64,000 bases of DNA from Actinomycetota bacterium (GTDB lineage Bacteria; Actinomycetota; Actinomycetes; Actinomycetales; Microbacteriaceae): assembly GCA_040389685.1 (NCBI GenBank), contig JAZJZS010000013.1, positions 107 to 64,106 on the forward strand. Direction: 5' to 3'. Below the pieces are notes generated by a model. The model worked only from the letters and a program-made list of their open reading frames with translations. It did not search any database and had not been told where the DNA came from. Positions 2,878-64,000 of the stretch are shown here, one piece after another. Numbering within the stretch: position 1 is the stretch's first letter; each line of letters starts with the position of its first letter. The position numbers and the translations under genes were made by a program.

Positions 2878-3090
2878 ATGCCTGCTGACAACGTTGCCGA
2901 CACGCCCCCCATGAACAGCGAGGACGCGAGCGCGCTTCTGCCCCGCTTGCGCGTGATCGAAGACCAGCCGCTTTCCTCACGTGCGGCCGCCTTCGTGCAG
3001 ATCCACGACCGCTTGCAGGCGAGCCTCGAGGGCTCACTCCGAGACGGCCATCGGGACGTTGGAGCGGACGCACCGGGAAAGCATGGCTGA
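2878..3090 (+). CDS. Small hypothetical protein upstream of tlyA
   Basis: ORF with TAGCGT -10-like hexamer 6 nt before ATG; overlaps tlyA start. Confidence 0.6.
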   Translation: MPADNVADTPPMNSEDASALLPRLRVIEDQPLSSRAAAFVQIHDRLQASLEGSLRDGHRDVGADAPGKHG

Positions 3091-7397: not shown

Positions 7398-9314
7398 ATG
7401 GCCGATCGACTCGCGGATGCTGTGAGCCCCTATCTGCGATCGCACGCCGCGAACCCGGTCGACTGGTTCCCCTGGGGCGAGGCGGCCTTCGCGGAAGCCC
7501 GTCGGCGGGATGTTCCCGTGTTGGTCTCGATCGGGTATTCGACCTGTCACTGGTGCCATGTGATGTCGCGGGAGAGCTTCAGCGATCCGGTGATCGCCGC
7601 CGTCCTCGCCGCGAACTTCGTGGCCGTCAAGGTGGACCGGGAGGAGCATCCGGATGTCGACGCCAGTTATCTCGCCGCCGCCGGTGCATTCACCGGCAAC
7701 CTGGGCTGGCCCCTCAACGTCTTCGTCACGCCGCGGGGCACGGCGTTCTTTGCGGGCACCTACTGGCCGCCCGTCGCCATAGGTGAACTGCCCTCTTTCG
7801 GGCAGGTCCTCGACGCCGTGACGGATGCCTGGACCTCCCGCCGTTCCGAGGTCGAGCAGACGGCGGCCGCGATCGCCGACGCGTTGCGGGGGTCGGCCGA
7901 CCGTGTGGCGACACCGGCGGCCACCATGCCTGTCGACGAGTTGCTCGCCGCCGCGGTCGACCATCTCGTCGCCTCGGAGGATGGAGAGTTCGGCGGGTTC
8001 GGCGGCGCGCCGAAGTTTCCGGTCGCGCCGGTGCTGCTCTTCGTGCTCGAGCGCGCTGCCGGGGGAGACACGGTGGCGCTCGCGCTGGCCCGGCGCACGC
8101 TCGCCGCGATCTGCGGACAGCGGCTGCCGCCCTCGCGGTCCATCGCGGCCTTGCGGGACAGGGTCGACGGTGGATTCTTTCGGTATGCGACGAAACGCGA
8201 CTGGAGCGATCCGCACTTCGAACGCATGCTCTACGACAACGCCCAACTGCTCGTCGCTTTCACCCGGCTGGCCCAGCTGGATGCCGGTGGGCGTCACGAA
8301 GCTATCGAGGTGGCGGAGGGGATCGCCGCATTCCTCATCGAGGTGATGGAGCAGCCGGATGGGGGCTTCGCGTCGGCGCAGGACAGCGAGAGCACCGTCG
8401 GCGGGGTGCGGCTCGAGGGTGCCTACTTCGCCCTCGATGCGGCGGCGCGGGTGGCCCAACAGCCGCCACCGCTCGATGCCAAGCTGCTCACCGGCTGGAA
8501 CGGGCTCGCCATCGGGGCCCTCGCGACCGCCGGATTCGTGCTCGGCCGGGAAGGGTGGCTCGCCGCCGCGCGCCGAGCGGCCGACGCGGTGATCGCTCGG
8601 CACCTGCGCGACGACGGAACGCTTCTCCGGGCATCGGTCGGCGGGCGGATGTCTTCGGCCTACGCCACGCTGGAGGACTATGGCATGTTCGCCGGCGGCC
8701 TGCTCGACCTGGCCGCCGCGACCGGTGAGGCACGCTATGCGGAGGTCGCCCGCGACCTGGTGGACCGCTCGCTCTACTCGGGTGGACGCGGCACCTTCGG
8801 GGTGCCTGGCGGAGCCGACCCGGTGCTCGTGGCGCAGGGTATCGCGATCGAGAACGACCCTTCGGAGGGCGCCTACCCCTCCGGCCTGAGCGCGATGGCG
8901 AAAGCGTGCGCCTCGCTGTACCTCATCACGGGGGACCTGCCCTACCGGGAGGCTGCGGACCGGGCGATCCACCGGCTGTTGCCCCTCGCCGCCCCGCGCC
9001 CGGTGTCGTTCGGTGCCACGCTCACCGTGGCATCCGCTCTCGCCCGGCCGATCGAACAGCTCGTGGTCGTGAGCGATGATCGCCACTCGCCGCTGCCGAC
9101 CGTGGCCAGAAGCCTGTACCGCAGCGGGATGTTCACCACCGTGGTGACGCTCCGCCAGGCGGCGGCCTTCGCCAACGCGGGATTCGAGCTGTTTGATGGG
9201 CGCCAACGCGAGGCAGCCTACCTGTGCCGGAGCTTCGTCTGCCGACTTCCGCTCACCGACGCGGACGAGTTGGTCGACGCGCTCGGCCAGCCGGCCCGAG
9301 GGACGTCGGCCTAA
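7398..9314 (+). CDS. Thioredoxin-domain protein, YyaL/SSP411 family
   Basis: [64 protein letters not shown]. Confidence 0.92.
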
Positions 9315-19166: not shown

Positions 19167-19802
19167 ATGAAATCAGCCGCATACGAACAGGTAGCCCGAC
19201 TCGGGCGCGCCTGTGCCCATCCGCATCGACTCGAGCTGCTCGAGCTGATCGCCCAGGCGGAACAGCCGGTGGACACGCTGGCGCGCATCTCCGGGATGCC
19301 GCTGACGACCGCATCCTCGCACCTGCAGGTGTTGAAGAATGCCGGCCTCGTCCGCACTCGACGACAGGGCACCACGATCTTCTACCGGCTTGCCGGCGAC
19401 GAGGTGGCCGGGCTGGTCGTGGCGCTGACATCGGTTGCCTCGAAAGCGATTCCGGAACTCCGACTCTTGGACGAGGCCGGGAGAGGTCGCGGCGCGGCAC
19501 CGCGGGTGCATAGCGTGAATAAGGACGAAGAGGCCTGTGTGCTGGATGTCCGACCGGACCGCGAATTCCAGGCCGGCCACTATCCTGGTGCGGTTTCGAT
19601 CCCGCTCGATCAGCTGCCGTCGCGCCTCTCCGAACTGCCACTCGACCGCCGCGTCGTCGTCTACTGCCGGGGCGAATTCTGTGACCTGGCGATGGACGCC
19701 GCCCGTCTGCTACGCGATCGGGGAATCGACGCCTACGCGATGGCAGAGGGAGTGCTCGAATGGCGGGCGAGCGGTGCGGTCGTTCTCGACGCGACGGCCT
19801 AA
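19167..19802 (+). CDS. ArsR/SmtB HTH-rhodanese fusion regulator
   Basis: AHPHRLELLELIAQ...TASSHLQVLKNAGLV HTH; LDVRPDREFQAGHYPGAVSIP and VVYCRGEFC rhodanese loop. Confidence 0.88.
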   Translation: MKSAAYEQVARLGRACAHPHRLELLELIAQAEQPVDTLARISGMPLTTASSHLQVLKNAGLVRTRRQGTTIFYRLAGDEVAGLVVALTSVASKAIPELRLLDEAGRGRGAAPRVHSVNKDEEACVLDVRPDREFQAGHYPGAVSIPLDQLPSRLSELPLDRRVVVYCRGEFCDLAMDAARLLRDRGIDAYAMAEGVLEWRASGAVVLDATA

Positions 19803-41541: not shown

Positions 41542-41613
41542 TCCGCCTTAGTGTAACGGCAGCACGACAGCCTTTGGAGCTGTTCGGTCCAGGTTCGAAT
41601 CCTGGAGGCGGAG
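41542..41613 (+). tRNA. tRNA-Gln(UUG), CCA not encoded
   Basis: Acceptor TCCGCCT/AGGCGGA, anticodon arm ACAGC-CTTTGGA-GCTGT, T arm CCAGG-TTCGAAT-CCTGG. Confidence 0.96.
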
Positions 41614-41614
41614 C

Positions 41615-41698
41615 GGTCTCGATACGCGCGCGAGAGCGCGCTACTCGACCACCATCGATACGCGCGCGAGAGCGCGCTACTCGACCACCATCGATACG
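41615..41698 (-). repeat. Tandem pair of REP-family elements (36-bp period)
   Basis: Minus strand reads (TGGTGGTCGAGTAGCGCGCTCTCGCGCGCGTATCGA)x2 then GACC. Confidence 0.8.
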
Positions 41699-49854: not shown

Positions 49855-50355
49855 ATGACCGCTTCGCCCCTCCTCGTGGTCATGGGTGTCTCGGGCTCCG
49901 GCAAGACCACGGTCGGGATCGCGCTCGCCGCGGCGCTCGGTGTGCCGTTCCAGGATGCCGATGACCTGCATCCGGCCGCGAACGTCGCCAAGATGGCCGC
50001 GGGCATCGCACTCACCGACGCAGATCGGATGCCGTGGCTCGCCCTCGTCGGAGCGGAACTCGCCGCCGCTCCCGAGGGTCTGGTTATCGCGTGCTCTGCA
50101 CTCAAGCGGGTGTACCGTCAGGCGATTCTCGCGGCGGCGCCCTCCACCCGGTTCGTCTTCCTCGACGGCTCGCGGGAGCTGCTCGAGTCCCGAGTGCAGC
50201 ATCGTCGGGGGCACTTCATGCCGGCATCACTGCTCGCTTCGCAGCTTGCCGCACTCGAGCCCCTCGCTCGGGACGAGCCCGGAGAGCGGGTTTCACTGGA
50301 CGAGCATCCGACGGTGCCGTCGATCGTCGCGCTGCTGGTCCCGCTGGTCGAGTAG
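49855..50355 (+). CDS. gntK: Gluconokinase
   Basis: VMGVSGSGKT, DADDLHPAANVAKM, LTDADR.PW, CSALKR, HFMPASLLASQLAALE. Confidence 0.92.
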   Translation: MTASPLLVVMGVSGSGKTTVGIALAAALGVPFQDADDLHPAANVAKMAAGIALTDADRMPWLALVGAELAAAPEGLVIACSALKRVYRQAILAAAPSTRFVFLDGSRELLESRVQHRRGHFMPASLLASQLAALEPLARDEPGERVSLDEHPTVPSIVALLVPLVE

Positions 50356-51225: not shown

Positions 51226-51813
51226 ATGGACTCCACTCAGTGGCTCGTAGTCGGGCTCGGCAACCCCGGGCCCGACTACGCAAGCAATCGACACAATGTC
51301 GGGCAGATGGTCTTGGCCGATCTCGCGGACCGCGCCTCGGCATCCTTCCGCTCGCACAAGACGAACTCGACGGTCGCCGAGGGGCGAACGGGTCTCGAGG
51401 GGCCGCGGCTCGTGCTCGCCAAGCCCAACAGCTTCATGAACCTGTCCGGCGGACCGGTCGCGGCCCTGCTCAACTTCTACAAGATCGAGCCGGCGCGCTT
51501 GATAGTCGTGCACGACGAGCTCGACATTCCGTTCGACAAGCTCAAGATCAAATTCGGTGGCGGGCACGGCGGCCACAACGGCATCCGCGACATCGTCTCG
51601 GCCATCGGGACGGGCGATTTCACCCGTGTGCGGGTCGGCATCGGTCGTCCGCCGGGCCGACAGTCCGCGGCGGACTTCGTGCTGCGCGATTTCGGATCAA
51701 CCGAGCGTGCCGTGCTCCCCAACCTTCTGACGGATGCCGCGGATGCCGTCGAGTCGATCGCTCGCGACGGCCTCACCGCGGCGCAGTTGCGCTTCCACAC
51801 CGCGACCGACTAG
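51226..51813 (+). CDS. pth: Peptidyl-tRNA hydrolase
   Basis: LVVGLGNPG, RHNVG, KPNSFMNLSG, VHDELD, GHGGHNG, RVRVGIGRP. Confidence 0.97.
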   Translation: MDSTQWLVVGLGNPGPDYASNRHNVGQMVLADLADRASASFRSHKTNSTVAEGRTGLEGPRLVLAKPNSFMNLSGGPVAALLNFYKIEPARLIVVHDELDIPFDKLKIKFGGGHGGHNGIRDIVSAIGTGDFTRVRVGIGRPPGRQSAADFVLRDFGSTERAVLPNLLTDAADAVESIARDGLTAAQLRFHTATD

Positions 51814-51883
51814 CGCTGCCAGTCCCTGAGCAGCGCTGCCGGTCGCTGAGCGACCGCATTCAGGTTGTCCGCTCGTCGCAAAT

Positions 51884-52080
51884 TGTCGCCTGGGCGTCCC
51901 ACACCAGCGCTTTTTGACGGACGAGACGCCCGCCCGGATGACGCCGCAGCCTGCCTGCCCCGCCTCACTGCTGGCCCGGCCGTCACTTACTGTCGCCTGG
52001 GCGTCCCACACCAGCGCTTTTTGACGGATGACGCCCGGACGACGCCGGGATGACGCCCGGATGACGCCGGGATGACGCAC
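51884..52080. repeat. 38-bp direct repeat pair plus 11-bp tandem array
   Basis: TGTCGCCTGGGCGTCCCACACCAGCGCTTTTTGACGGA at 51884-51921 and 51991-52028; five GGAYGACGCMS units at 52026-52080. Confidence 0.8.
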
Positions 52081-52145
52081 CCGCCCCGGCGAGGCCCCGG
52101 CGACCACCCCCAGCACCGTCGCCGCCCGAGCGTAGACTCCATCGA

Positions 52146-55100
52146 GTGATACTTTCGGGCTTGAATTCTGCTCTTTTGCGCGCCCCCACGTTCGAAAATG
52201 CTGTCACATGGGCGTCCCGCAGCACGGATTTCTCCCTCGTCGACGGCCTCCGTGCCCCGCTCCTGGCCTCACTGCTCGCCGCCCGCGCCGCGAAGACCGA
52301 CTCCCCGCAGGCCCTGCTCGCGATCGTCGCGACCGGCCGCGACTCCGAGTCGCTGCGGTCCGCCCTCGCTTGCGTGCTGCCCGGCGCCCAGGTCGTTGAG
52401 TTCCCCGCCTGGGAGACCCTCCCGCACGAGCGGCTGAGCCCCAGCGCCGAGACAGTGGGCAAACGCATCCATGCCCTGCGCATCATGCGGCGCTGGCAGG
52501 ATGCCCCGAGCGGCGACCTCGTGATCGTCGCGAGCGTGCGCGCCGCGCTCCAACCCCTCGCCGACAACCTCACGAGCATCGAGCCGCTCGCTCTCAGCGC
52601 GGGTGGTCGCGGTTACAACCTGGCGGGCATCAGCCGCCAGCTCGTCGACCTGGCGTATTCCCGGGTCGACATGGTGACCCGTCGAGGCGAATTCGCGGTG
52701 CGAGGCGGCATCCTTGACGTCTTTGCGCCGGTGGCCGAGCATCCGTGGCGCGTGGAGTTCTTCGGCGACGAGATCGAACAGATCCGCCAGTTTTCCGTTG
52801 CCGACCAGCGCTCGCTGGACGAGCCGATCCGTGTCGTGGAACTTCCGCCGAGCCGTGAACTGCTGCTGAGCGACGCCGTGAAGCAGCGCGCGCGGGAGAT
52901 GCAACACGAGTTTCCGAGCCTCGGCCAGATGCTCGCCAAGATCAGCGAGGGCATCCCGGTCGACGGCATGGAATCGCTCGCGCCCGCCCTCGCCGACCGG
53001 CTCGTGCCGCTCACCCACTACCTGCCGACGGATGCCGCGATCGCTGTACTCGCGCCGGAGCGGGTCGCGAGCCGGGCTGTGAGTCTCGTCGAGACCAACC
53101 GCGAGTTCCTCAGTGCGGCGTGGAATGCCGCGACGGCAGGCGCCGAAGCTCCGATCGACCTCGATTCGGGTGACTTCCTCAGTATCAACGCGCTGCGGGA
53201 TGCCGCAGGCTCACGCAACTGGTGGACGCTCAGCAGCTTCGACAGCGGCGCCACGGGTCTCGATACGGGCGCTGATCGCCCTACTCGACCAGCGGGCGAG
53301 ACCGCCACCTCAGAATTCCGCGACGGTGAGCATTACATCCGCATAGACGCGAACCCAGTGCCCACCTTTCAGGGCCGGGCCGACGGGGCGATCGACTACG
53401 TCGGCGACAAGCTGCGAGCAGGTTGGACAGTCGTCGTCGTCGCGGCCGGGCACGGCCTGGTCGAGCGTGCCGCGGAGGCCCTCGGCGAGCACGGCTTCGC
53501 GGCGCGCATGGTGGACGAGTTCCCGAAAACCCTGGAGACCGGAGTCGCGTACCTGCTGAAGGCATCCGTCGAGCACGGATTCGAGCTGCCCGAGATCGAC
53601 TTCGCGCTGCTGAGCGAGAGCGAGTTCTACGGTCGTGCCGCCGGTTACGACACCCGCCAGGTGAAGAAGCTCGCCAGCCGCCGCAAGAACGTAGTGGACC
53701 CGCTGCAGCTCAAGGCAGGCGACTTCGTGGTGCACGAGACCCACGGCATCGGGCGTTTCGCCGAACTGGTGCAACGCGAGGTGTCGACCGGCGGCAGGAA
53801 TCCCGTGAAGAACAACCGCGAATACCTGCTCGTCGAATACGCGCCCTCGAAGCGCGGCTATCCCAACGACAAGCTCTACGTTCCCACCGACCAGCTCGAC
53901 CTGCTCACCCGCTACGTCGGGGGAGAGGCTCCAGCGCTGAGCAAGATGGGCGGATCTGAATGGGCGGCCCAGAAGGGACGCGCCCGAAAGGCGGTACGAG
54001 ATATCGCCGTCGAGCTGGTCAAGCTCTACTCGGCGCGCATGGCGAGCCGCGGCCATGCCTTCCCGCCGGACACCCCCTGGCAGCAGGAACTCGAGGATGC
54101 CTTTCCGTTCGCGGAGACCCCCGACCAACTCACCACGATCGACGAGGTGAAGGCCGACATGGAGCGTCCGATACCGATGGATCGCCTCATCTCCGGAGAC
54201 GTGGGCTACGGCAAGACCGAGGTCGCCATCCGTGCCGCGTTCAAGGCCGTGCAGGATGGCAAGCAGGTGGTCATGCTCGTGCCGACGACCCTTCTGGTTA
54301 AGCAACACATGGAGACCTTCGCCGAGCGCTTCGCCGGCTTCCCCGTGCATCTGCGCGCCCTCAGTCGCTTCCAGACCGACAAGGAATCCAAGGAGACGAT
54401 CGAGGGCATGGCGGATGGCACGGTGGACGTCGTCATCGGCACCCACCGCCTGCTCAGCCCCGGCATCGTGCTCAAAGACCTCGGCCTCGTGATCATCGAC
54501 GAGGAACAGCGTTTCGGGGTCGAGCACAAAGACGCGCTGAAGAAGTTGAAGACCAACGTGGACATCCTCGCGATGAGTGCGACGCCGATCCCGCGCACGC
54601 TCGAGATGGCGGTGACCGGCATCCGCGAGATGTCGACGCTCGCGACACCTCCGGAGGACCGGCATCCGATCCTCACCTTCGTCGGTCCCTACAACGACAA
54701 GCAGGTCGGTGCCGCCATCCGGCGTGAATTGCTGCGTGAGGGCCAGATCTTCTTCGTGCACAACCGTGTGACGTCAATCAGCCGGGTCGCCGCCCAACTC
54801 GCCGAACTCGTGCCAGAGGCGCGCATCGCCGTGGCGCACGGGCAATTGCCCGAACACGTGCTCGAGCAGGTGATGGTCGACTTCTGGGAGCGCAAGTTCG
54901 ACGTGCTGGTTTCCACGACCATCATCGAGACCGGTCTCGACATCTCCAACGCGAACACCCTCATCATCGACCGGGCCGACAAGTACGGCCTCAGCCAGTT
55001 GCACCAGTTGCGCGGCCGGGTCGGTCGCGGACGTGAACGTGCCTACGCGTACTTCCTCTACGACGCCGACAAGCCCCTCGGTGAGGTCGCCCACGACCGT

Positions 55101-55784: not shown

Positions 55785-55933
55785 CCTCCCGCTGGTCGAG
55801 TCCCCGGTGCCCACCAGTTTTCAAGGTGCAATGGGATGAAGAAGCTCATGACAGCTCGCAAATTATGCATTATAAGGCTGGCAACTTTTACATAATGAGG
55901 CTGGCGGATATTGATTTGAAGTAGAGTCTGCGC

Positions 55934-57205
55934 ATGGACGTTATGTACGAACGCCGTGTTTTGCAGGTCGCTCGCAACCGTATGGTCGATGAATCTGTCG
56001 TACTTCTCGAAGGCCCGCGGTCAGTCGGTAAGTCCACTCTCTTGCGTCAACTCGCTGAAGCTCACTACGCAGAGGTCATCGACCTAGACGACATGGCTGT
56101 ACGCCAAGCTGTAGAAGCAAACCCGGTTCTGTTTGCGGCGGGTCCGTCGCCAGTGTGTTTCGACGAGTACCAAAAGTTCCCACCTGTTCTCGATGCGGTC
56201 AAAGCAGAGCTCAACAAAAGAGACGCTCCTGGCCGGTTCCTGCTGGCCGGTTCCACCCGCCACGATGCGCTCCCAATCACCGCACAGACGCTGACTGGGA
56301 GGCTGAATCGCCTTCCGGTGTATCCGCTTACCCAAACAGAGATCGAGGCAACGGGTGTCAATCTGGTTCAGACCATGTTCGAGGAGCCCGAGACGCTCAT
56401 CTGGCGGGAAACCTCAACCACCTCCCGCGAAGACTACATACGAAGAGTCGCCGATGGTGGTTTCCCAATCGCTTTAGCTCGCAGTTCGCGTGTGTCAAAG
56501 AACCGGTGGTTCGACGACTACACGAAGCTCACCTTGGAACGAGATGCCGCTGAGTTCGCGACGATCAAAAGAGCTAACCTCCTCCCTGCATTACTCGGAT
56601 CATTGGCTGGGCAGACGGCACAAGTTCTCAACATCGCGAAGGCGTCTGAGAAAGCGGGACTGGACATGAGGACTGGTGAGTCTTACCTCCGGCTCCTTGA
56701 ATCCGTTTTCCTTATTCAACGGATACCTGCGTGGCGGAGCACGCTAAGCAACAGGGCGACCTCCACCCCAAAATTGCATGTGGTCGACTCCGGCGTCGCC
56801 GCCAGGCTGCTGCAACTCACGCCGGAGAAGCTCGCTCACAGAGACCCGACGTCGCTCACCGAGTTCGGGCATCTCCTGGAAACGTTTGTGCTCGGAGAGT
56901 TGCAACGTCACGCATCCTGGCTGGATGGAATATCTAACGTCTCCCATTGGCGGACCAGGGACAACGACGAGGTTGACGTCGTCATCGAACGCGACGACGG
57001 CCGGGTAATCGCTTTCGAGGTCAAGACCGGCACCAACATCCCGAGCAAGGAACTAGCTCCAATGGTCAAACTGAGAAACAAACTTGGCGACCGGTTCCTC
57101 GCCGGCACGATTCTCTACACCGGCGGACTCAGCTACACGCCGCAAACCCGCATTCATGTGCTGCCAGTGGACAGGCTGTGGAGAAAGAGCACGAGTTCGG
57201 TTTGA
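55934..57205 (+). CDS. AAA+ ATPase with DUF4143 / PD-(D/E)xK C-terminus
   Basis: LEGPRSVGKST, FDEYQK, LAGS, PKLHVVDSGV, EVDVVIE...AFEVK; visibly lower GC than flanks. Confidence 0.88.
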   Translation: MDVMYERRVLQVARNRMVDESVVLLEGPRSVGKSTLLRQLAEAHYAEVIDLDDMAVRQAVEANPVLFAAGPSPVCFDEYQKFPPVLDAVKAELNKRDAPGRFLLAGSTRHDALPITAQTLTGRLNRLPVYPLTQTEIEATGVNLVQTMFEEPETLIWRETSTTSREDYIRRVADGGFPIALARSSRVSKNRWFDDYTKLTLERDAAEFATIKRANLLPALLGSLAGQTAQVLNIAKASEKAGLDMRTGESYLRLLESVFLIQRIPAWRSTLSNRATSTPKLHVVDSGVAARLLQLTPEKLAHRDPTSLTEFGHLLETFVLGELQRHASWLDGISNVSHWRTRDNDEVDVVIERDDGRVIAFEVKTGTNIPSKELAPMVKLRNKLGDRFLAGTILYTGGLSYTPQTRIHVLPVDRLWRKSTSSV

Positions 57206-57484
57206 ACTATCGAGTGGCCTGACAAAGCACAATCTCGGCTCAGAATCACTTTTCCATCTCACTGGAATCGTAAGGCTGACGACGCGCCGCACCGGCTGCG
57301 AAGCTCCGCTCCAGGGACCACGCAGCCACGATCGGCGCACCCGTCCGACCACCAGCACGGCGGCACCAACTCAACCCGCGATGCAATCCGGCGCCCCTCC
57401 TTCACAAGTTCTCCCGTGCCCGAACTCTCCCCATTCCGGCCCACGACGCGCGTAGCCGCCCGACTTCCCCACTACCGTCGCGGC

Positions 57485-57876: not shown

Positions 57877-58110
57877 ATGAGTAAACAGATCGCGGTACGA
57901 CTGCCCGATGACCTGGTGGACTTCCTCGACCAGTTGGTCGCAAGCGGCGAAGAGGCGAGCCGCGCATCCATTGTCACGCGTGCCCTGAAACGTGAAAGGC
58001 GCCGGCTCGGCGCGCTCAACGATGTCGAGATCCTCAAGCGCCTTGGCGAGGATCCCGAGCTGATCGGTTTCGCGGAATACGCCAGCCGCAATCGCCCGGA
58101 GCTCGACTAG
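57877..58110 (+). CDS. mazE: RHH antitoxin, MazE-type
   Basis: KQIAVRLPDDLVDFLD...SRASIVTRALKRERRR; closely resembles mycobacterial MazE3 as recalled; coupled to toxin. Confidence 0.85.
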   Translation: MSKQIAVRLPDDLVDFLDQLVASGEEASRASIVTRALKRERRRLGALNDVEILKRLGEDPELIGFAEYASRNRPELD

Positions 58111-58409
58111 TGCGGCCGATTCATCTGGCCGGAACCGACAAGCTTCGCCCGGTCGTGATCCTCACGCGGGAAGAAGTTCGACCGTATCTGACTTGGGTCA
58201 CCGTCGCGCCGATAACATCCACGAGTCGCGGATTACAGACGGAGGTCATTGTCGGCCCACGCAACGGTCTGGATCATGAATCGGTCGTATCGTGCGACAA
58301 CCTCGAGACGATTCGAGCGACGGAAATTGGCCGACAGATCGGATTCCTCCTCCCCTCGCAGGAGCTCGCCCTCACCGAGGCGCTGCACGCCGCCTTCGAC
58401 CTCGAATAG
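58110..58409 (+). CDS. mazF: MazF/PemK endoribonuclease toxin
   Basis: MRPIHLA..DK.RPVVILTRE.VRP.LT.VTVAPIT...RGL.TEV...NGL...SVVSCDN; closely resembles M. tuberculosis MazF3 (Rv1102c) as recalled. Confidence 0.9.
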   Translation: MRPIHLAGTDKLRPVVILTREEVRPYLTWVTVAPITSTSRGLQTEVIVGPRNGLDHESVVSCDNLETIRATEIGRQIGFLLPSQELALTEALHAAFDLE

Positions 58410-58503
58410 GTCCGGCTCTCCACACCACATCCGCCCGACACACACATCCACAGATCGCGCGATCGCCCACTGACGCCCACTGCTACCTCGCCACACTGGC
58501 CGC

Positions 58504-59625
58504 ATGACAGTGATACTTAAGGCAAACGGCCCGGCCGACCTGCTCGCGATGGCGCCGCCGATGGTGGGCTTCCTGCCGCGCAACAGCGTCGTACTCGTCG
58601 CGTTCCGCGGCAAGCGAACCTGTGGCGCGATGCGGTTCGACCTCCCGGCATCCGCCGATCGCATCGTGCACAAGCGCGTCGCGACCACAATCGTCGGCAT
58701 GTTCTGCAAACTGCCGGCGGTGGATGCCGCGCTGGTGATCGTCTACACCGATGACGAGTTCGGCGCCGGTGATGCCATTCCGCAGGCGGCTTTCGCCGAA
58801 GTGATCGGGCGGCGCCTGCAGCTCTCGGGCTTCGAGCTGCGCGAGTCGATCTGCCAGGCGGCGGATGGCTGGGCATCCTATTTCGATCGCGACGTGCCGG
58901 CTGGCGGTCACCCGCTGGCCGAGATCGCCGAGTCGGCAGTTGCCCGCGCGATCGAGGGCCAGCGCGGGCTGTTCCCTCAGCCATCGACGACCATCGATCG
59001 CGTCCCTCGCGCCGAGAAGTCGCAGCGATCGCGAATGTCGAAGAGGCTTGCCGCGTATGAGAAAGTCAGGCAGGGTATCCAGCGCAATCAGGGGGAGTGT
59101 CCGCCCACCGTGCTCGATGTGCTCGGGGACATCCCGCTCTTCGCTGAGGGCGCACTGGCCTGGGACGCTGCCGCGCTCGATGCGGACGGCGCGCTTTTGG
59201 TCTTCGCACTGCAGGGTCCGCCGTTGCGGGATCTGGTGATGCTGCAGTGGGCCTTCGGCCTGGAGCTGGGCGACCGGCTGTGGGAGGGGGATTTGCACGA
59301 CGATTCCCCCGACGGGGCAAATGCGGACTCTGCGGAGTTGCTCATGGGATTCGGGCCGCGCCCCGATCCGCAGCGCATCGAGGGTGCCATCGCGCTCATG
59401 CTCGAGCTGACGTCGCGCACCGAGGATGCGAAGCGGCCACCCCTGCTCTGTATGCTCGCGTGGCTCAACTGGGCGCTCGGTCACGGAACTCAGGCCGGGC
59501 TGCACCTCGACGAGGCCCTGGCCATCGCGCCCACCTATTCGATGGCACGACTGCTCGAATCGATGACCCGCACCGGCATCCTGCCCGAGTGGGCATTCGA
59601 GGGGCCGTCCTCGCTGGTCGAGTAG
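58504..59625 (+). CDS. DUF4192 family protein
   Basis: DLLAMAPPMVGFLPRNSVVLVAF, GAMRFDLP, LRDLVM, LAWLNWALG.G..A. Confidence 0.85.
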   Translation: MTVILKANGPADLLAMAPPMVGFLPRNSVVLVAFRGKRTCGAMRFDLPASADRIVHKRVATTIVGMFCKLPAVDAALVIVYTDDEFGAGDAIPQAAFAEVIGRRLQLSGFELRESICQAADGWASYFDRDVPAGGHPLAEIAESAVARAIEGQRGLFPQPSTTIDRVPRAEKSQRSRMSKRLAAYEKVRQGIQRNQGECPPTVLDVLGDIPLFAEGALAWDAAALDADGALLVFALQGPPLRDLVMLQWAFGLELGDRLWEGDLHDDSPDGANADSAELLMGFGPRPDPQRIEGAIALMLELTSRTEDAKRPPLLCMLAWLNWALGHGTQAGLHLDEALAIAPTYSMARLLESMTRTGILPEWAFEGPSSLVE

Positions 59626-59656
59626 TGCCTGACGAAGGAGGACGCGTATCGAGACC
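59612..59656 (+). repeat. REP-family element overlapping the DUF4192 stop
   Basis: CGCTGGTCGAGTAG...CGTATCGAGACC. Confidence 0.8.
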
Positions 59657-59659
59657 AAA

Positions 59660-59920
59660 GTGGTACACCGCCCCAAGAGGAGTACGCACGTCTTCAGTGG
59701 GGGAGATCGGGGACGGGTAGTGTTGCCCAGCCGACTTCGGCAGCATCGTGGCTGGTCGGAGGGCACCACCCTCGTCGCAATCGAGACCGCGACCGGTGTT
59801 GTCGTTACGTCTCGTGAGGAACTGGAATTGATTGTGGAGCAACAGCTTGCCGGTGTGGATCTCGTGGCTCAGCTGCTCGAGGAACGGCGCGCATCCGCAG
59901 CTCTCGACGACCGCGCGTGA
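59660..59920 (+). CDS. AbrB/MazE/SpoVT-family antitoxin
   Basis: GDRGRVVLPSRLRQHRGWSEGTTL; GTGA overlap with PIN toxin. Confidence 0.82.
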   Translation: MVHRPKRSTHVFSGGDRGRVVLPSRLRQHRGWSEGTTLVAIETATGVVVTSREELELIVEQQLAGVDLVAQLLEERRASAALDDRA

Positions 59921-60297
59921 ACGTCTTCGACTCCTCCGCACTCATCGCCTATCTCCGCCGTGAATCGGGCAGCGATGTGGTGCGAGATCAGCTGCTTGAC
60001 GGGGGCGCGTGCAGTGCGGCCAACTGGTCCGAAGTGGCTCAGAAGGTGCGTGGAGCAGGTGCGGACTGGGGAATTTCCCGGGCGTTGCTCCTCAGCTACG
60101 AGCTCTCGGTCGAGCCAGTCACACCGGCGGATGCCGAGGAGGCAGCGCTGCTCTGGGCCGCGGGTTTCTCGCTGTCACTCGCAGATCGGCTGTGTCTGGC
60201 CCTGACGAATCGGCTCGCCGCAACGGCGTGGACGGCGGATGCCGAGTGGCGCGACTTGCCGAACGTGCGGATGATCCACTCTCCGGTGGTCGACTAG
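59917..60297 (+). CDS. vapC: VapC/PIN-domain toxin
   Basis: VFDSSALIAYL, SAANWSEV, LSLADRLCLAL, WTADAEW. Confidence 0.88.
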   Translation: MNVFDSSALIAYLRRESGSDVVRDQLLDGGACSAANWSEVAQKVRGAGADWGISRALLLSYELSVEPVTPADAEEAALLWAAGFSLSLADRLCLALTNRLAATAWTADAEWRDLPNVRMIHSPVVD

Positions 60298-60376
60298 TTC
60301 GCGCAGCGTGTGCTGGTCGAGTAGCTCGCGCAGCTTGTGCTGGTCGAGTAGGTCGCGCAGCGACCGTATCGAGACC
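60287..60376 (+). repeat. Cluster of three REP-family units (two truncated, one complete)
   Basis: GGTCGACTAGTTCGCGCAGC, TGCTGGTCGAGTAGCTCGCGCAGC, TGCTGGTCGAGTAGGTCGCGCAGCGACCGTATCGAGACC. Confidence 0.82.
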
Positions 60377-60394
60377 CGTGCACATATCCTGACG

Positions 60395-60545
60395 CCCGTT
60401 CATCCGCCGTCGCTCCACCATCGTGATCCCCACGCCGATCACCGTGCCCACCGAATTCGCGCGGATGTCGCTCCAGCTGAACCAGCACCGTGCCGAGCGA
60501 GATGTCGATGAACGCATCGACACGCGACGGCCAGAATCGAGACCC
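60395..60545 (-). pseudogene. Internally deleted vanZ-like copy
   Basis: Minus strand gives FWPSRVDAFIDISLG and, in another frame, SWSDIRANSVGTVIGVGITM, matching both ends of the intact gene at 62607-63032 with roughly 200 bp missing. Confidence 0.8.
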
Positions 60546-60573
60546 GCGTCGGTCAGGGCAAACGGCAGCGGCC

Positions 60574-60912
60574 TTACGCCGAATTCCGATCAATGTATTC
60601 GGCGAGTGCATCCCGAACAACATCGCTCTGTCGACGTCCCTGCCTCGCAGAGAGGCGGGTCAGCTTTTCGTCGAGGTCATGCGGAAGCCGAAATGTTCGC
60701 TGGGGCGACTTGTACCCGTGAGCTTGTCGTGCAGTCGTGCTCGAAAGAGCGGGGCGGCCACGAACAGCCCTTTCCACGGCTTCAGGCCCTCCAAGCGCCG
60801 TCTCCAGCATCGCTCGCCCTGATGCGGCAGCCTCCGCCCCCGACGTGAGCCGGGTATCTTGGCCAAACGCGGTGAGGTCTTCAGCCCCTTCGCCGAGAGA
60901 TGCATCATTCAT
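60574..60912 (-). CDS. RHH/CopG-type antitoxin (GRP motif, BrnA-like)
   Basis: RGRPAL...RTFRLPHDLDEKLTRLSARQGRRQSDVVRDALAEY; ATGA overlap with upstream toxin. Confidence 0.78.
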   Translation of the reverse strand: MNDASLGEGAEDLTAFGQDTRLTSGAEAAASGRAMLETALGGPEAVERAVRGRPALSSTTARQAHGYKSPQRTFRLPHDLDEKLTRLSARQGRRQSDVVRDALAEYIDRNSA

Positions 60913-61187
60913 CGATTCCTCCTCTCTTCAACCAATGTGATGATCTTTTGCCGTGCCTCCATGACGTGAAAGACGGATACATCGCCAGAATCGAGAATTT
61001 CCACCATTACCTCCAGAATGACGCCCGGTGCTCTCGCTGGACCGAGGAACAAAGCCGGCGCGCTACGGCCGAGGAGTCTCGGTTCATCGACATCATCAAC
61101 CCTGGCGACGGAAAAAAGTATTGCGTGCACGGCATCTTCGTGAGCGATTCCATGCCTGTCAGCGGAACCGCGGCACATGAGCGCCAC
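60909..61187 (-). CDS. Putative BrnT/RelE-like toxin
   Basis: SADRHGIAHEDAVHAI...LFLGP...ILEVMV...VFHVMEARQK. Confidence 0.7.
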   Translation of the reverse strand: MALMCRGSADRHGIAHEDAVHAILFSVARVDDVDEPRLLGRSAPALFLGPARAPGVILEVMVEILDSGDVSVFHVMEARQKIITLVEERRNR

Positions 61188-61469
61188 TATGTAGGTTCAC
61201 GATCAAAGCATAATTGTGCACTGCACAAAAGACGTAGCTGTGGGCGAAGAAACATGCTTTTCAGGTTTCTGGCTACGTGCCACGTCAGTCCGCGATCTTC
61301 ACTGTCGGTGGAACAGCTGTCGGCAGCGGAGCGGAGCGCAGTGCAGGAGAGGCCCTGCATAGGTCGCCGAACCTGCACCGCCGGCGACAGGCGCGCAGTG
61401 CCGATGACTTTCCCGACGTCAACTTCAGCGCTAATGCGCGAAGTGAGTGTGGATGGCTCGTCGGTCAGC

Positions 61470-61615
61470 CAGGAGGCAGCGCTTCTCTGGGGGGCAGGTT
61501 CCTCGCTGTCACTCGCAGATCGACTGTGTCTGGCCCTGGCGAATCGCCTCACGGCAATCGTGTTGACCGCGGATGCCGCCTGGCGTGACCTCCCAACGTG
61601 CGGATTATCCGCTGA
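61470..61615 (+). pseudogene. vapC C-terminal remnant
   Basis: EAALLWGAGSSLSLADRLCLALANRL...TADAAWRDLP, near-copy of 60136-60285 with a 1-bp deletion near the end; no 5' half. Confidence 0.82.
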
Positions 61616-61627
61616 TCAAGCCACAGC

Positions 61628-61663
61628 CAGCCGAGTAGCTCGCTCAGCGACCGAGTCGAGACC
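61628..61663 (+). repeat. Degenerate REP-family element
   Basis: CAGCCGAGTAGCTCGCTCAGCGACCGAGTCGAGACC. Confidence 0.65.
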
Positions 61664-61880
61664 TCCTCTCCGCAACACCCGAGCAGAGTTCCCAGGACTC
61701 AACCGATCGCCTGAGCGCGCCAAGGCCATCGGAGAGCCAGCACTACCGTCGCCTACATGCCGTCTCGACAACTGATCCCTGCGATGCCTTATGCAGTCGG
61801 CGCTGATGAATCCTCCTTCAGCGTTGCCGCGAGTGGCCCGATTGAAAGTTACCTTGACGACTTCGCGATTGATATGTAGC

Positions 61881-62117
61881 GTGGACAGTAGAGTTCTCAT
61901 TCTGCCGAGCGCTGGCCGACATGGCATCGATCCGGAGGACGCTCTGCACGCGATTCGCAACGCGATCCGCATTTGGGCACTCGACGAAAAGTTTTACCTG
62001 TATGTCGGTCCGGATTCAACCGGAGACCTCATCGAAGTCGGTGTGGTAATCGATCCGCCGACGCGCCTTGTTGTCCATGCGATGAGAGCGCGTCGCAAGT
62101 ACCTATCGAGGAAGTAG
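61881..62117 (+). CDS. Putative BrnT/RelE-like toxin (paralogue of 60909-61187)
   Basis: SAGRHGIDPEDALHAIRNA...LYVGPDSTGDLIEV...VVHAMRARRKY. Confidence 0.75.
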   Translation: MDSRVLILPSAGRHGIDPEDALHAIRNAIRIWALDEKFYLYVGPDSTGDLIEVGVVIDPPTRLVVHAMRARRKYLSRK

Positions 62118-62122
62118 CCACA

Positions 62123-62395
62123 ATGCCCAAATCCCTCCAGCAACGACTCGATCATGCGGATGCTCTCGTCGATGTTTTCGAGAATTATGAGCCGCGCTCC
62201 GAAGATCAGCGCGACGCTGCACCACACCGAGCCCTGGTTGCCGCGGTAGAGCAGCGCGCTGATGCCGATCGCGCGATTGTCGGAGCTGTGGCGGCCTTGC
62301 GCGATGCGCAGTTCTCATGGGCGTACATAGGCGCCTATTTGGGCACCTCAGGACAGGCGGCGCAGCAGCGGTACGGTGGGCGAGCCAGCGGGTAG
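62123..62395 (+). CDS. Putative HTH antitoxin
   Basis: ALRDAQFSWAYIGAYLGTSGQAAQQRYG; directly follows toxin. Confidence 0.72.
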   Translation: MPKSLQQRLDHADALVDVFENYEPRSEDQRDAAPHRALVAAVEQRADADRAIVGAVAALRDAQFSWAYIGAYLGTSGQAAQQRYGGRASG

Positions 62396-62436
62396 CGCTG
62401 TGGCATCTTTCTCGCCGGTTGAGTAGGTCGCTCAGC

Positions 62437-62540
62437 CAGTGCGGCCAACTGGTCCGAAGTGGCTCAGAAGGTGCGCGGAGCAGGCGCCGATTGGCCTATA
62501 CCTATATCTCGCGGATGATCCGCACTCCGCTGACCGACTA
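62437..62540 (+). pseudogene. vapC remnant (middle and 3' tip, internal deletion)
   Basis: CAGTGCGGCCAACTGGTCCGAAGTGGCTCAGAAGGTGCG matches 60012-60050; GCGGATGATCC..GACTAGTTCGCGCAGC matches the vapC end. Confidence 0.82.
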
Positions 62541-62594
62541 GTTCGCGCAGCTCGTGCTGGTCGAGTAGGTCGCGCAGCGACCCTATCGATACCG
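62533..62594 (+). repeat. REP-family pair (truncated plus complete)
   Basis: GACCGACTAGTTCGCGCAGC-TCGTGCTGGTCGAGTAGGTCGCGCAGCGACCCTATCGATACC. Confidence 0.78.
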
Positions 62595-62606
62595 TTGGCG
62601 CAACCC

Positions 62607-63032
62607 CTATTGACCGACCTTGCGCCGACGCACCAGCATTGTGATCCCTACGCCGATCGCGGCGCCCACCGAATTGGTGAGAATGTCGCTCCAACTCATA
62701 TTGCGCCCCGGAAGCAGCAGCGCCTGGCCGAGTTCGATGGACCCCGAGAGCGCGATGCTCGCGACCAGAGCGATCCACCAGTGGCGCCGATTCAACTGTG
62801 CCGCAGTCAGCGCACCCACGGGAACAAACAGCAGCACGTTGGCTGCGCGTTCGACGAACCGAAAGTCCACGACATCCGGGACCCCGACTGAGTGCAGAAA
62901 CTCGAGCACTCGCCCAAGTGAACCGTCGATGGGCGCGTCAACGGGAGAAGGCCAGAATCCGATCAGGAGGAATGCCGCGACATACGCCGCGCCCACCAGG
63001 GCGAGAAGTCGTCGGGTTCGACCTTGCAGCAT
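62607..63032 (-). CDS. VanZ-like membrane protein
   Basis: FWPSPVD, ERAANVLLFVPVG, SGSIELGQ, SDILTNSVG. Confidence 0.88.
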   Translation of the reverse strand: MLQGRTRRLLALVGAAYVAAFLLIGFWPSPVDAPIDGSLGRVLEFLHSVGVPDVVDFRFVERAANVLLFVPVGALTAAQLNRRHWWIALVASIALSGSIELGQALLLPGRNMSWSDILTNSVGAAIGVGITMLVRRRKVGQ

Positions 63033-63302
63033 AGGGGAAGCCTAGTGATGGTGGTGATCCAGAACGGCTCAAGCCTGTCATCGAAGTTATTCCGACGTGC
63101 GACCCGGCATGCTCTTGCGTGACACTCCAGATTGGAAGTCGAGTAGTTGGCTACTTGACCGCATCGAAACGGTTCCATTGTTGATGGCTTCCCTGGCAAC
63201 TACTTGCGCGCCAGCATCTCATATCAAAGAGCAGAATATAGGACTCCGGGTGGTGGTGATCGGATTCGCGCCAGTGTCACTGCCGAGTGCAACGATTGGC
63301 TC

Positions 63303-64000
63303 ATGAAACTTTGGCCGCACCCGGGACTTGCAACGGCTGATGAACAGCGAGGCATCAAGCTCTCGAACGGCACGATCGGTCGTATACGAGCGAGCGGTCT
63401 CCGCCTTCCGAGCGACGTTGGGCCTCCCGAAGGACCGCACTTCCGTTACGACGACGGGCCTCAATTGTTTTCGGGACGGCACGGTCGAGGGCCGCTGCAG
63501 GTTGCATGGGACACGAATCTGCTGGTCGGCTACTTCGAGCACGGTCACCAGCTTTGAGAAGGGGAGGCTCTGACGCAACTGCTTCTCACTCAGCAGGGCA
63601 AAGAGCTTGAGGGGCTCCAGCTGGTTGTCAGTCTCCGGGTTTTGCGCGACATGCGGTTCCACATTCTTCCTGGCGTGATCGATGACTCCAAGCGGAAGCC
63701 GCTCCCCGCGTCTCGAAGGCGGCAACGGCTCAACGCGTGGGAGGAGTTCTGTGCCGCGCTCGCTATTGTCGAAGACGAAGACGGCTACGGAGATCCGGTC
63801 CCGCCTGCACATTTGTCAGAGGGCGAACTCAACACGGCGCTGTCGCATGTGCCGACCGGGAACGACAGAGAATTCGTCGGCGACGCCGTCGCGCGGGGCA
63901 TGCACGTCTTCATGACTTGCGACAAGCGAATCCTCAAAGCTCGGAGCAACCTGGCACCGTTCGGACTACTACTCGCCAGCCCACTTGATCTCCTCGAAGA
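63303..64000 (+). pseudogene. PIN-like domain protein interrupted by an in-frame TGA (63555-63557); truncated by window end
   Basis: VAWDTNLL before the stop; same frame continues open as EGEAL...NDREFVGDAVARGMHVFMTCDKRIL...PLDLLE. Confidence 0.65.

Follow-up and report, generated by a model that had tools for sequence, protein, structure and literature searches.

The 64,000-nt window analyzed here (contig JAZJZS010000013.1 of an uncultured bacterium of the Microbacteriaceae) has a G+C content of 66%. At its start it carries the terminal part of a 23S rRNA gene and a gene for 5S rRNA. The run of core genes (rplY, pth, mfd) stops at position 55784, past which the G+C drops to 0.57-0.63, indicating that the following stretch, rich in toxin-antitoxin (TA) modules and in copies of a repetitive extragenic palindromic (REP) sequence, is a variable islet downstream of mfd. 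Mfd has 80% protein identity to its counterpart in a Terrimesophilobacter metagenome-assembled genome (MAG), and its C-terminal third shares 97% protein (88% nucleotide) identity with a Microbacteriaceae MAG contig (UBA10887). Among public runs the complete locus was found in one only, a watershed metagenome (SRR26324623), where it is tiled by four Logan contigs of equal depth (17.9-20.1x), which argues for one genome and no strain mixture. Related loci, labeled L followed by a number, were obtained through a DUF4192-based metagenome scan and homologue look-ups, at about 80-87% nucleotide identity.

Four self-contained type II TA modules have accumulated in this hypervariable chromosomal islet downstream of mfd and DUF4192 (Table 1). 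All four had been proposed in a sequence-only reading of this DNA, and evidence from Pfam, NCBIfam, a PDB profile and AlphaFold identifies them as a ribbon-helix-helix (RHH)-MazF pair, an AbrB-VapC pair, a pair formed by a RelS/BrnT-like toxin and an RHH antitoxin, and RelS-RelI. The first consists of a PemK/MazF toxin with a small DNA-binding antitoxin encoded upstream, as defines MazEF systems, the antitoxin being of RHH and not of AbrB-type MazE fold. The stop codon of the antitoxin gene overlaps the mazF start at 58108-58112, and both genes are conserved together in L083, L085 and L114. The second pair has the composition of a type II VapBC system, with a 4-nt overlap between abrB and vapC; the vapC orthologues of L083, L112 and L129 end earlier, with a TGA stop and no REP. 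The preceding DUF4192 gene follows mfd immediately in L079 and L088, and its linkage to abrB-vapC is kept in the distant loci L096 and L117 (46-58% protein identity), which suggests that DUF4192-abrB-vapC is a conserved three-gene neighborhood of old linkage rather than a freely mobile vapBC.

The other two modules carry small toxins that are paralogues, 38% identical to each other. No match in Pfam or NCBIfam was obtained for these toxins, for the RelI-like protein or for the hypothetical protein hyp140. A profile of both toxins matches RelS of M. tuberculosis (PDB 9sdc_C) with an E value of 4.5e-13, and the RelS-like profile recovers 1522 cluster representatives (50% identity) at E<=0.001. 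The AlphaFold (AF2) model of the toxin at 61881-62117 (pLDDT 79) has a Salmonella TA toxin and BrnT (3u97, TM 0.68) as its best PDB matches in Foldseek, and residues K9, H10, H64, R69 and K71 of RelS align to its R13, H14, H66, R71 and K73. With a toxin-first order, a 5-nt gap between the genes, the RH, H, R and K residues and a RelI partner, this pair corresponds to RelS-RelI. RelS belongs to the RelE superfamily, is BrnT-like and cuts 16S rRNA in the anti-Shine-Dalgarno region (PMC13284704); the label "BrnT-like" given earlier to the small toxins is a fair one, and their precise family is RelS. The antitoxin at 60574-60912 is the partner of the RelS-like toxin at 60909-61187, for which 19 homologues were found at 64-88% identity, and the antitoxin gene is collinear with L129 at 79% nucleotide identity. 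In the case of relS-relI (61881-62395), a word-index search with the 78-aa toxin returned L128 as sole relative, at 49% identity and in another context. There, on an unrelated actinobacterial contig (L128 1267-2498), the relS-relI relative lies directly upstream of an AbrB-PIN pair, both module types thus being adjacent twice; no copy of the REP family is present in the 1.56-kb stretch of L128 inspected.

Table 1. Genes, gene remnants and REP copies of the islet (positions in the window; R1, REP covariance model).
Feature	Position	Strand	Evidence or remark
RHH (CopG/YlcI-type) antitoxin of the MazF pair	57880-58110	+	Pfam RHH_1; NCBIfam YlcI/YnfO 2.8e-8
MazF/PemK toxin	58110-58409	+	Pfam PemK_toxin 6.4e-11
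DUF4192 gene, not TA	58504-59625	+	Pfam DUF4192 2.2e-32; stop is the TAG of the next REP
AbrB/SpoVT-type antitoxin (VapB)	59660-59920	+	Pfam MazE_antitoxin 6e-4; TIGR01439 AbrB 6.6e-5
VapC (PIN) toxin, intact	59917-60297	+	Pfam PIN 1.3e-11; C-terminal residues and TAG stop donated by the first REP left arm
Antitoxin with C-terminal RHH (BrnA-like architecture)	60574-60912	-	Pfam RHH_1 3.9e-7 at residues 73-109
RelS/BrnT-like toxin, 92 aa	60909-61187	-	In the profile matching 9sdc_C RelS
RelS-family toxin, 78 aa, GTG start	61881-62117	+	Profile match to 9sdc_C
RelI-family helix-turn-helix antitoxin	62123-62395	+	PDB 9sdc_A RelI, E 4.8e-8
vanZ, intact	62607-63032	-	Pfam VanZ 1e-15; 82-85% nucleotide identity to L082, L083, L129
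vanZ remnant, internal deletions, first ~26 codons gone	60380-60535	-	80% identical to 62614-62696
vapC remnant B (3' ~150 nt, ancestral TGA stop kept)	~61458-61613	+	84-85% identical to 60137-60280
vapC remnant C (mid-gene 58 nt, 16-nt filler, 3' end)	62437-62541	+	62437-62494 93% identical to 60012-60069; then 62511-62541
REP, decayed copy of long-hairpin subtype	59613-59658	+	R1 33.6 bits, E 1.8e-8
REP array: three 27-nt left-arm units and complete REP 60339-60378	60284-60378	+	R1 64.5 bits
REP, 12 nt past the stop of vapC remnant B	61626-61665	+	R1 49 bits, E 1.5e-13
REP left half, broken within the hairpin (left arm, GTAG, 5' stem, loop and 2 nt)	62413-62436	+	GAGTAGGTCGC found only in REPs
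REP: extra left-arm unit 62528-62555 and complete REP 62556-62595	62528-62595	+	R1 56.8 bits
REP right-arm remnant ATCGAGACCCG	60536-60546	+	Abuts the vanZ remnant where its 5' end is truncated
Degenerate REP upstream of vanZ	63131-63171	+	R1 12.8 bits
REP left-arm remnant right after the mfd stop	55792-55801	+	Followed by the inserted ATPase segment

The repeat has the form CTGGTCGAGTAG-[hairpin]-CGTATCGAGACC, with nearly invariant arms and a hairpin whose sequence differs among copies yet stays paired. Covariation is pronounced, with 94% of the cells paired and six out of six inner-stem pairs changed on both sides; none of 500 shuffles reaches the observed score, and slid controls are 23-50% paired. 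In the alignment of 14 sequences, columns 8-12 (GAGTA) are invariant and G13 nearly so. All eight full copies of the window show an unpaired GTAG immediately 5' of the stem, the distinguishing mark of the GTAG REP super-family (PMC3733652), and the repeat fits the structural definition of a GTAG REP. An attC-like fold was rejected, as the DNA folds into a plain 6-bp stem enclosed by an outer TCGA/TCGA stem of 4 bp. Rfam at gathering threshold returned rRNA and tRNA only over the window, with no family for the REP; also, a terminator scan did not flag the REPs, which have no T-runs. No description of GTAG REPs or of RAYTs (tyrosine transposases associated with REPs) in Actinobacteria was found in the reachable literature, where targeted searches gave nothing relevant.

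The covariance model recovers eight full REPs in the window, all at 41.6-62.6 kb (two in tandem by tRNA-Gln, one after a kinase-like gene, one in frame in mfd and four in the TA islet), together with about five partial copies. Half of the full copies thus lie within 3 kb, while none occurs in 1-41 kb, apart from a weak 18.5-bit match at 19590-19614. The two copies by tRNA-Gln are perfect tandem 36-nt units located between this gene and glmU (41613-41689, minus strand). The 21-mer core has three matches against 0.01 expected, and the Logan depth of the exact REP variant is about 4-6x that of single-copy sequence. Copies of the family also occur in Galbitalea, Terrimesophilobacter and other Microbacteriaceae loci. 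Both the covariance model and the 21-mer core bear out the same-orientation (+) REPs that had been reported at the module edges, with covariance-model E values of 1e-8 to 1e-18 for those at 59613-59658, 60339-60378, 61626-61665 and 62556-62595.

Outside the TA modules, REPs likewise sit at or close to gene 3' ends. The REP TAG provides the stop codon of the kinase-like gene (50353-50355), pth (51811-51813), DUF4192 (59623-59625) and vapC (60295-60297), and, among the relatives, of mfd in L114 (REP 8854-8894) and of DUF4192 in L082 (~1270) and L112. The stop is donated by the TAG of GTAG or by a CGACTAG variant, the same-strand cases being all in one frame (..LVE or ..VVD before the stop). Partial REPs follow pth and mfd. 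Since the same family is found at or close to the kinase, pth and mfd 3' ends, gene-end REPs are the rule here and not a speciality of TA modules. The in-frame REP inside mfd (53254-53293, minus strand) occupies a variable linker at about residue 370 and does not occur in the mfd genes of L083, L114 and L088. A Terrimesophilobacter MAG (L023 4999-5080) has two inverted REPs in the same linker, pointing to independent insertions at one permissive spot.

Three out of the five REP sites highlighted in the sequence-only reading are copies of one junction between a vapC 3' end and a REP, here named A (60267-60378), B (61458-61665) and C (62511-62595). Copies A and C have in common a derived first left-arm unit, CGACTAGTTCGCGCAGC (60284-60310 in A), and both run into vanZ 3' sequence; vapC-3' plus REP is present three times and vanZ twice. 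The three sites, being one vapC-3'/REP junction, were therefore duplicated together with coding DNA, which explains their shared orientation. Both vapC remnants of that reading are real, including the one that starts one base after a REP half, at 62436/62437; the 3' part of this remnant C is 88% identical to 60267-60334, and the remnant is 95% identical to the vapC of L112. Three features had been missed: DUF4192 as a conserved non-TA gene, the vanZ remnant, in whose open reading frames (ORFs) "FWPSRVDAFIDISLG" and "SWSDIRANSVGTVIGVGITM" can still be read, and the REP remnant at 60536-60546. The latter assignment follows from the 11-mer that forms this remnant having four occurrences in the window (both strands), the other three of which lie in full REPs.

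The 59.6-63.1 kb region thus reads as three stacked versions of one locus, each opening with vapC sequence and then a REP. The first unit (U1) is abrB-vapC-REP-vanZ'-(REP remnant)-RHH-relS-like, and has the native arrangement of genes, being collinear with L129 except for a missing phosphodiesterase (PDE) gene and the decay of vanZ. The second (U2) is vapC' (3' only)-REP-relS-relI-half REP and the third (U3) vapC'' (mid and 3')-REP-vanZ-(degenerate REP). The paralogous fragments are 80-93% identical to each other and about equally far from the L082 and L112 orthologues, which fits an origin from different lineages.

About seven novel joints were placed in the window, four in or at REP sequence and three outside (57281-57392, ~61363-61458 and 63050). 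At 55801 a REP left arm is directly followed by a horizontally transferred ATPase gene, and at 60284 vapC passes into REP and homology to the relatives ends. At 60536 a REP right arm is fused, with ATC microhomology, to the 5'-truncated vanZ', and at 62436/62437 a REP is cut two bases into its 3' stem and fused to mid-vapC. The right boundary of the ATPase insertion (57281-57393), which has a weak match to the REP right arm, was not counted as a REP joint. The joints at 60536 and 62436/7 connect a REP piece with coding DNA (vanZ and vapC, respectively); they are therefore illegitimate and not products of site-specific REP x REP exchange. The proposal that breakpoints fall at REPs is true in part: the joints at 60536, 62436/7 and 55801 lie in REPs, whereas three of the seven joints of the window do not, nor do at least five further breakpoints in the relatives (both sides of an insertion in L085, both sides of a deletion in L086, and the point of divergence between L112 and L083).

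Module content is not fixed across the relatives, which differ in their modules. L083 is organized as rplY-pth-mfd-hyp140-RHH-mazF-DUF4192-abrB-vapC-(PDE-like gene, minus)-vanZ (minus), L084 and L085 have an extra 1.3-kb gene between mazF and DUF4192, and L129 reads vapC-PDE-vanZ-36 nt-RHH-relS-like-HNH. L112 has a different gene downstream of vapC, and L114 has mfd-REP-hyp140, the full REP giving the mfd stop codon. In L082 the order is DUF4192-REP-vanZ-REP, abrB-vapC being absent and a single REP lying at that site, which is the outcome expected of REP x REP deletion; its second REP (1925-1972, 22 bits) matches the position of 63131-63171. In L086, abrB-vapC is internally deleted to a stub (2990-3090) with an AGATCGG microhomology joint and four or five copies of GATCGGCTGTGCCT, a REP-independent loss of the module. 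L083-86 and L129 have essentially no REPs, yet carry the same modules, and REP-poor relatives differ at the same intergenic spots (1.3-kb insertion, PDE gene, other genes). Also, REPs after DUF4192, after vapC and inside mfd behave as presence/absence differences of 35-45 nt, with homology continuing on both sides and module content unchanged; the REP at 59613-59658, for instance, has no counterpart at the same site in L083, L084 and L085. Candidate joints in runs X2 and X14 ("skips 739-740") do not represent an abrB-vapC deletion, the hairpin of the DUF4192-3' REP being more similar to the 60341 copy. In a scan with Mfd over species loci (80 loci), DUF4192 is next to mfd in L079 only and TA modules occur in none, indicating that the islet is lineage-specific.

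The insertion next to mfd (~55806-57280) carries a DUF4143/AAA_14 ATPase gene (55934-57205) that is present in the window only and not in the relatives of the islet. Copies occur in unrelated contexts in L121 (94% nucleotide, 96% protein identity) and L122 (87% nucleotide, 91% protein identity). The neighbors of the gene in the window are only about 82-88% identical to those of the relatives, a contrast that points to recent horizontal transfer. Upstream of the gene lie two to three copies of a 23-nt motif, (T)GCATAATA(A/G)GGCTGGCAA (TRF array 55854-55905), probably an operator.

With somewhat better than even confidence, the islet is interpreted as a recombination-prone region in which alternative vapC-vanZ alleles have been stacked through recombination within vapC-REP, a conserved stretch. 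The footprint expected of integration or of unequal recombination is seen here: vapC is intact on the left, and the vapC copies to its right are 5'-truncated and each carry other downstream DNA. We infer that circularized fragments from related strains could have entered by single-crossover (Campbell-type) integration anchored in vapC-REP, or, as an alternative route, that unequal recombination took place between vapC-REP segments, with deletions occurring afterwards under either route. The REPs probably served as portable homology or as fragile sites: as short homologous stretches they would allow REP x REP deletion or duplication and 27-nt slippage, and as hairpin-forming sites they may give rise to DNA ends that are illegitimately joined to non-REP DNA. 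The locus would then be an ordinary TA-rich variable islet rather than a cassette platform, and the REPs are probably opportunistic recombination or break sites.

Several observations weigh against this interpretation. Four out of about seven joints fall in or at REPs, which make up about 20% of the non-coding DNA (rough post hoc binomial P ~0.03), and this enrichment hints at a role of REPs beyond that of bystanders. The segment 60536-62436 has a REP right piece at its left end and a REP left half at its right end, and its circularization would rebuild one REP (...GTAGGTCGCTCAGC/ATCGAGACCCG...) minus about 6 nt, an arrangement that REP-specific cutting would also explain. The divergence among paralogues was estimated from fragments of 58-144 nt and could equally reflect an old in-situ duplication followed by pseudogene decay. 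No donor allele for U2 or U3 was found in any collection searched. Finally, the order across the 39-nt identical vapC stretch and the REP repeats is presumed from the assembly.

More active roles have also been proposed for the REPs. RAYTs (TnpA-REP) are reportedly the partners of the GTAG REPs of Proteobacteria (Di Nocera 2013, PMC3733652; Nunvar 2010; Ton-Hoang 2012), and in the sequence-only reading a trans-acting RAYT or other recombinase excises REP-bounded TA circles at attC-like REPs and reinserts them, shuffling the array. This model appears quite unlikely, even though two novel joints coincide exactly with truncated REPs, which together delimit a 1.9-kb segment and are permuted (the right piece coming before the left half), the transferred ATPase gene comes right after a REP left arm, with a similar GTTGAGTGAGGG motif before its 94% (nucleotide) copy in an unrelated contig, L082 lacks abrB-vapC and has one REP at the site, and the REPs bear the GTAG head recognized by RAYTs in E. 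coli (PMC3733652). The partners at the joints are vanZ and vapC coding DNA, no REP x REP exchange being seen, and the breaks lie elsewhere than at GTAG. Nor does each module have bounding REPs; the modules occur in both orientations and have upstream regions of their own. Moreover, the REPs here are all direct repeats, without the inverted doublets (REPINs) that are the proposed mobile unit (PMC3390384), REP-free relatives are equally variable, and REPs are gained and lost without module change. Pfam revealed no RAYT, integrase or transposase in the submitted ORFs of 55.9-64 kb, and Actinobacteria are not mentioned in the GTAG REP/RAYT literature examined. In view of the lack of such enzymes among these ORFs, the coding-DNA joints and the equal variability of REP-poor relatives, the integron-like shuffling of modules is not upheld. 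A variant in which a trans-acting HUH/RAYT-like or hairpin-specific nuclease cuts the REPs, and REP-to-REP segments circularize and re-enter chromosomes, is likewise improbable; the segments so released may include the 1.9-kb block 60536-62436, with its permuted REP ends, and the widely exchanged DUF4143 ATPase gene. If true, REPs would constitute an integrase-free gene-capture system in an actinobacterial lineage without described REPs or RAYTs.

Passive REPs are assumed by an in-situ history comprising one or two tandem duplications of a vapC-REP-vanZ region, decay, deletions and independent RelS-like insertions. The direct repeats of vapC-3', REP and vanZ-3' do agree in order and orientation, A and C have the derived left-arm unit in common and group with L112 in the vapC mid fragment, and the 27-nt slippage attests to local duplication activity. 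This history is nonetheless held to be rather unlikely, as the 15-20% divergence among copies equals the distance to orthologues of other lineages, and as two joints precisely in truncated REPs are not expected if REPs were uninvolved. Also, U1 already has the native vanZ-RHH-relS-like order (L129), and a second intact vanZ would require another source or a larger duplication. An assembly artefact, with strain alleles chained or a wrong path taken via the 39-nt stretch and the REPs, would produce the same stacked look, which is that expected of a strain chimera. The Logan k=31 contigs of the source run do break at 60021-60041, 60349-60365 and 62446-62466, which are these very repeats, and an alternative path deduced from the contig ends would give a simpler locus (DUF4192-abrB-vapC''-REP-vanZ) plus a 2.4-kb remainder. 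Against such a chimera, the four contigs have the same depth, as single-copy parts of one genome and not minor-strain alleles would; a stretch of 39 nt is presumably far below Illumina read length and large assembler k-mers; and only the path of the window leaves an intact abrB-vapC operon as in the relatives, making this explanation very unlikely. The stacking of alleles by recombination in the vapC-REP segment is retained as the preferred interpretation.

Beyond the intact vanZ, the ORF at 63204-64000 (+) contains one in-frame TGA (63555-63557) and is cut by the window end. The region ~63300-64000 had been taken for a PIN pseudogene; this is not sustained, since reading through the TGA gives no Pfam match. 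The ORF at 63219-63812 (-) has no Pfam match either. Elsewhere, the pth-mfd spacer (51866-52110) contains a direct repeat of about 100 nt (GTCGCCTGGGCGTCCCACACCAGCGCTTTTTGACGGA... twice) and an 11-nt array (CGGATGACGCC x 4.9), and L114 has at this spacer an unrelated insert of about 0.8 kb past a shared REP.

The locus documents a GTAG REP family in the Microbacteriaceae, including stop-codon donation and an in-frame insertion in mfd. If REP hairpins seed rearrangements, it would be a compact case from nature in which REPs drive changes of gene content in Actinobacteria. The TA modules are of known families, and two RelS-family modules are added, one with a RelI and one with an RHH partner, to a RelS-RelI type that was characterized only in 2026. 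The locus also calls for caution, in that a single gene-end/REP junction, once duplicated, can account for repeats at the edges of modules.

In the Vibrio superintegron the attC sites are VCRs and many of the cassettes are TA cassettes. As in integrons of this kind, the TA modules of the islet lie among one-orientation palindromic repeats in a strain-variable chromosomal region. Unlike integrons, the islet has no IntI, attI or Pc, with no integrase domain among the 55.9-64 kb ORFs submitted to Pfam, and its neighbors are mfd, the DUF4143 ATPase, a hypothetical protein, DUF4192 and vanZ. Some 40 nt in length, its REP does not have the R''-L''/L'-R' layout of attC. The modules are neither promoterless nor co-oriented, being distributed over both strands and preceded by upstream regions of their own, and a single repeat does not follow each of them: MazEF is without a REP, pseudogene fragments lie between REPs, and the RHH/RelS-like pair, encoded on the opposite strand, shares about 175 nt of conserved upstream sequence with L129. 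The joints connect REPs to coding DNA and not site to site, with no hybrid attC/attI. Every defining feature of an integron array that was tested proved absent. The REP-associated variable regions of Pseudomonas (Loper 2012, PMC3390384) are likewise integrase-less, with REPs proposed as homologous-recombination sites; they differ in that recent acquisitions are usually REP deserts, whereas here the variable islet is the REP-densest part of the window.

The pair 61881-62395 resembles RelS-RelI (Rv2663-Rv2664) of M. tuberculosis (PMC13284704) in its toxin-first order and in both chains matching 9sdc. It differs in the Arg at the position of K9 and in its low sequence identity; cleavage of the 16S rRNA anti-Shine-Dalgarno region would be its predicted activity. 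The pair 60574-61187 joins a RelS-like toxin to an antitoxin with a C-terminal RHH, as in BrnA of the BrnT-BrnA system of Brucella abortus; relative to RelS-RelI and BrnT-BrnA it is a mixed toxin/antitoxin combination.

The closest parallel for the repeats themselves is found in the GTAG REPs and bacterial interspersed mosaic elements (BIMEs) of Proteobacteria (PMC3733652), which are also imperfect palindromes of 35-46 nt with GTAG directly 5' of the stem, occur as dispersed copies and tandem arrays at gene 3' ends and comprise several hairpin subtypes. Their TAG is likewise known to act as the stop codon of the upstream ORF, and occasional in-frame copies occur within DNA-repair genes, as here in mfd. 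The present family differs in its actinobacterial host, the 2013 survey covering Proteobacteria, Cyanobacteria, Chloroflexi and the Planctomycetes-Verrucomicrobia-Chlamydiae (PVC) group (PMC3733652), and in that its copies at this locus are all direct repeats and not inverted doublets. It also differs in its pattern of conservation, the flanking arms being the most conserved part (GGTCGAGTAG ... GTATCGAGACC, with TCGA/TCGA pairing) while the hairpin drifts with compensation.

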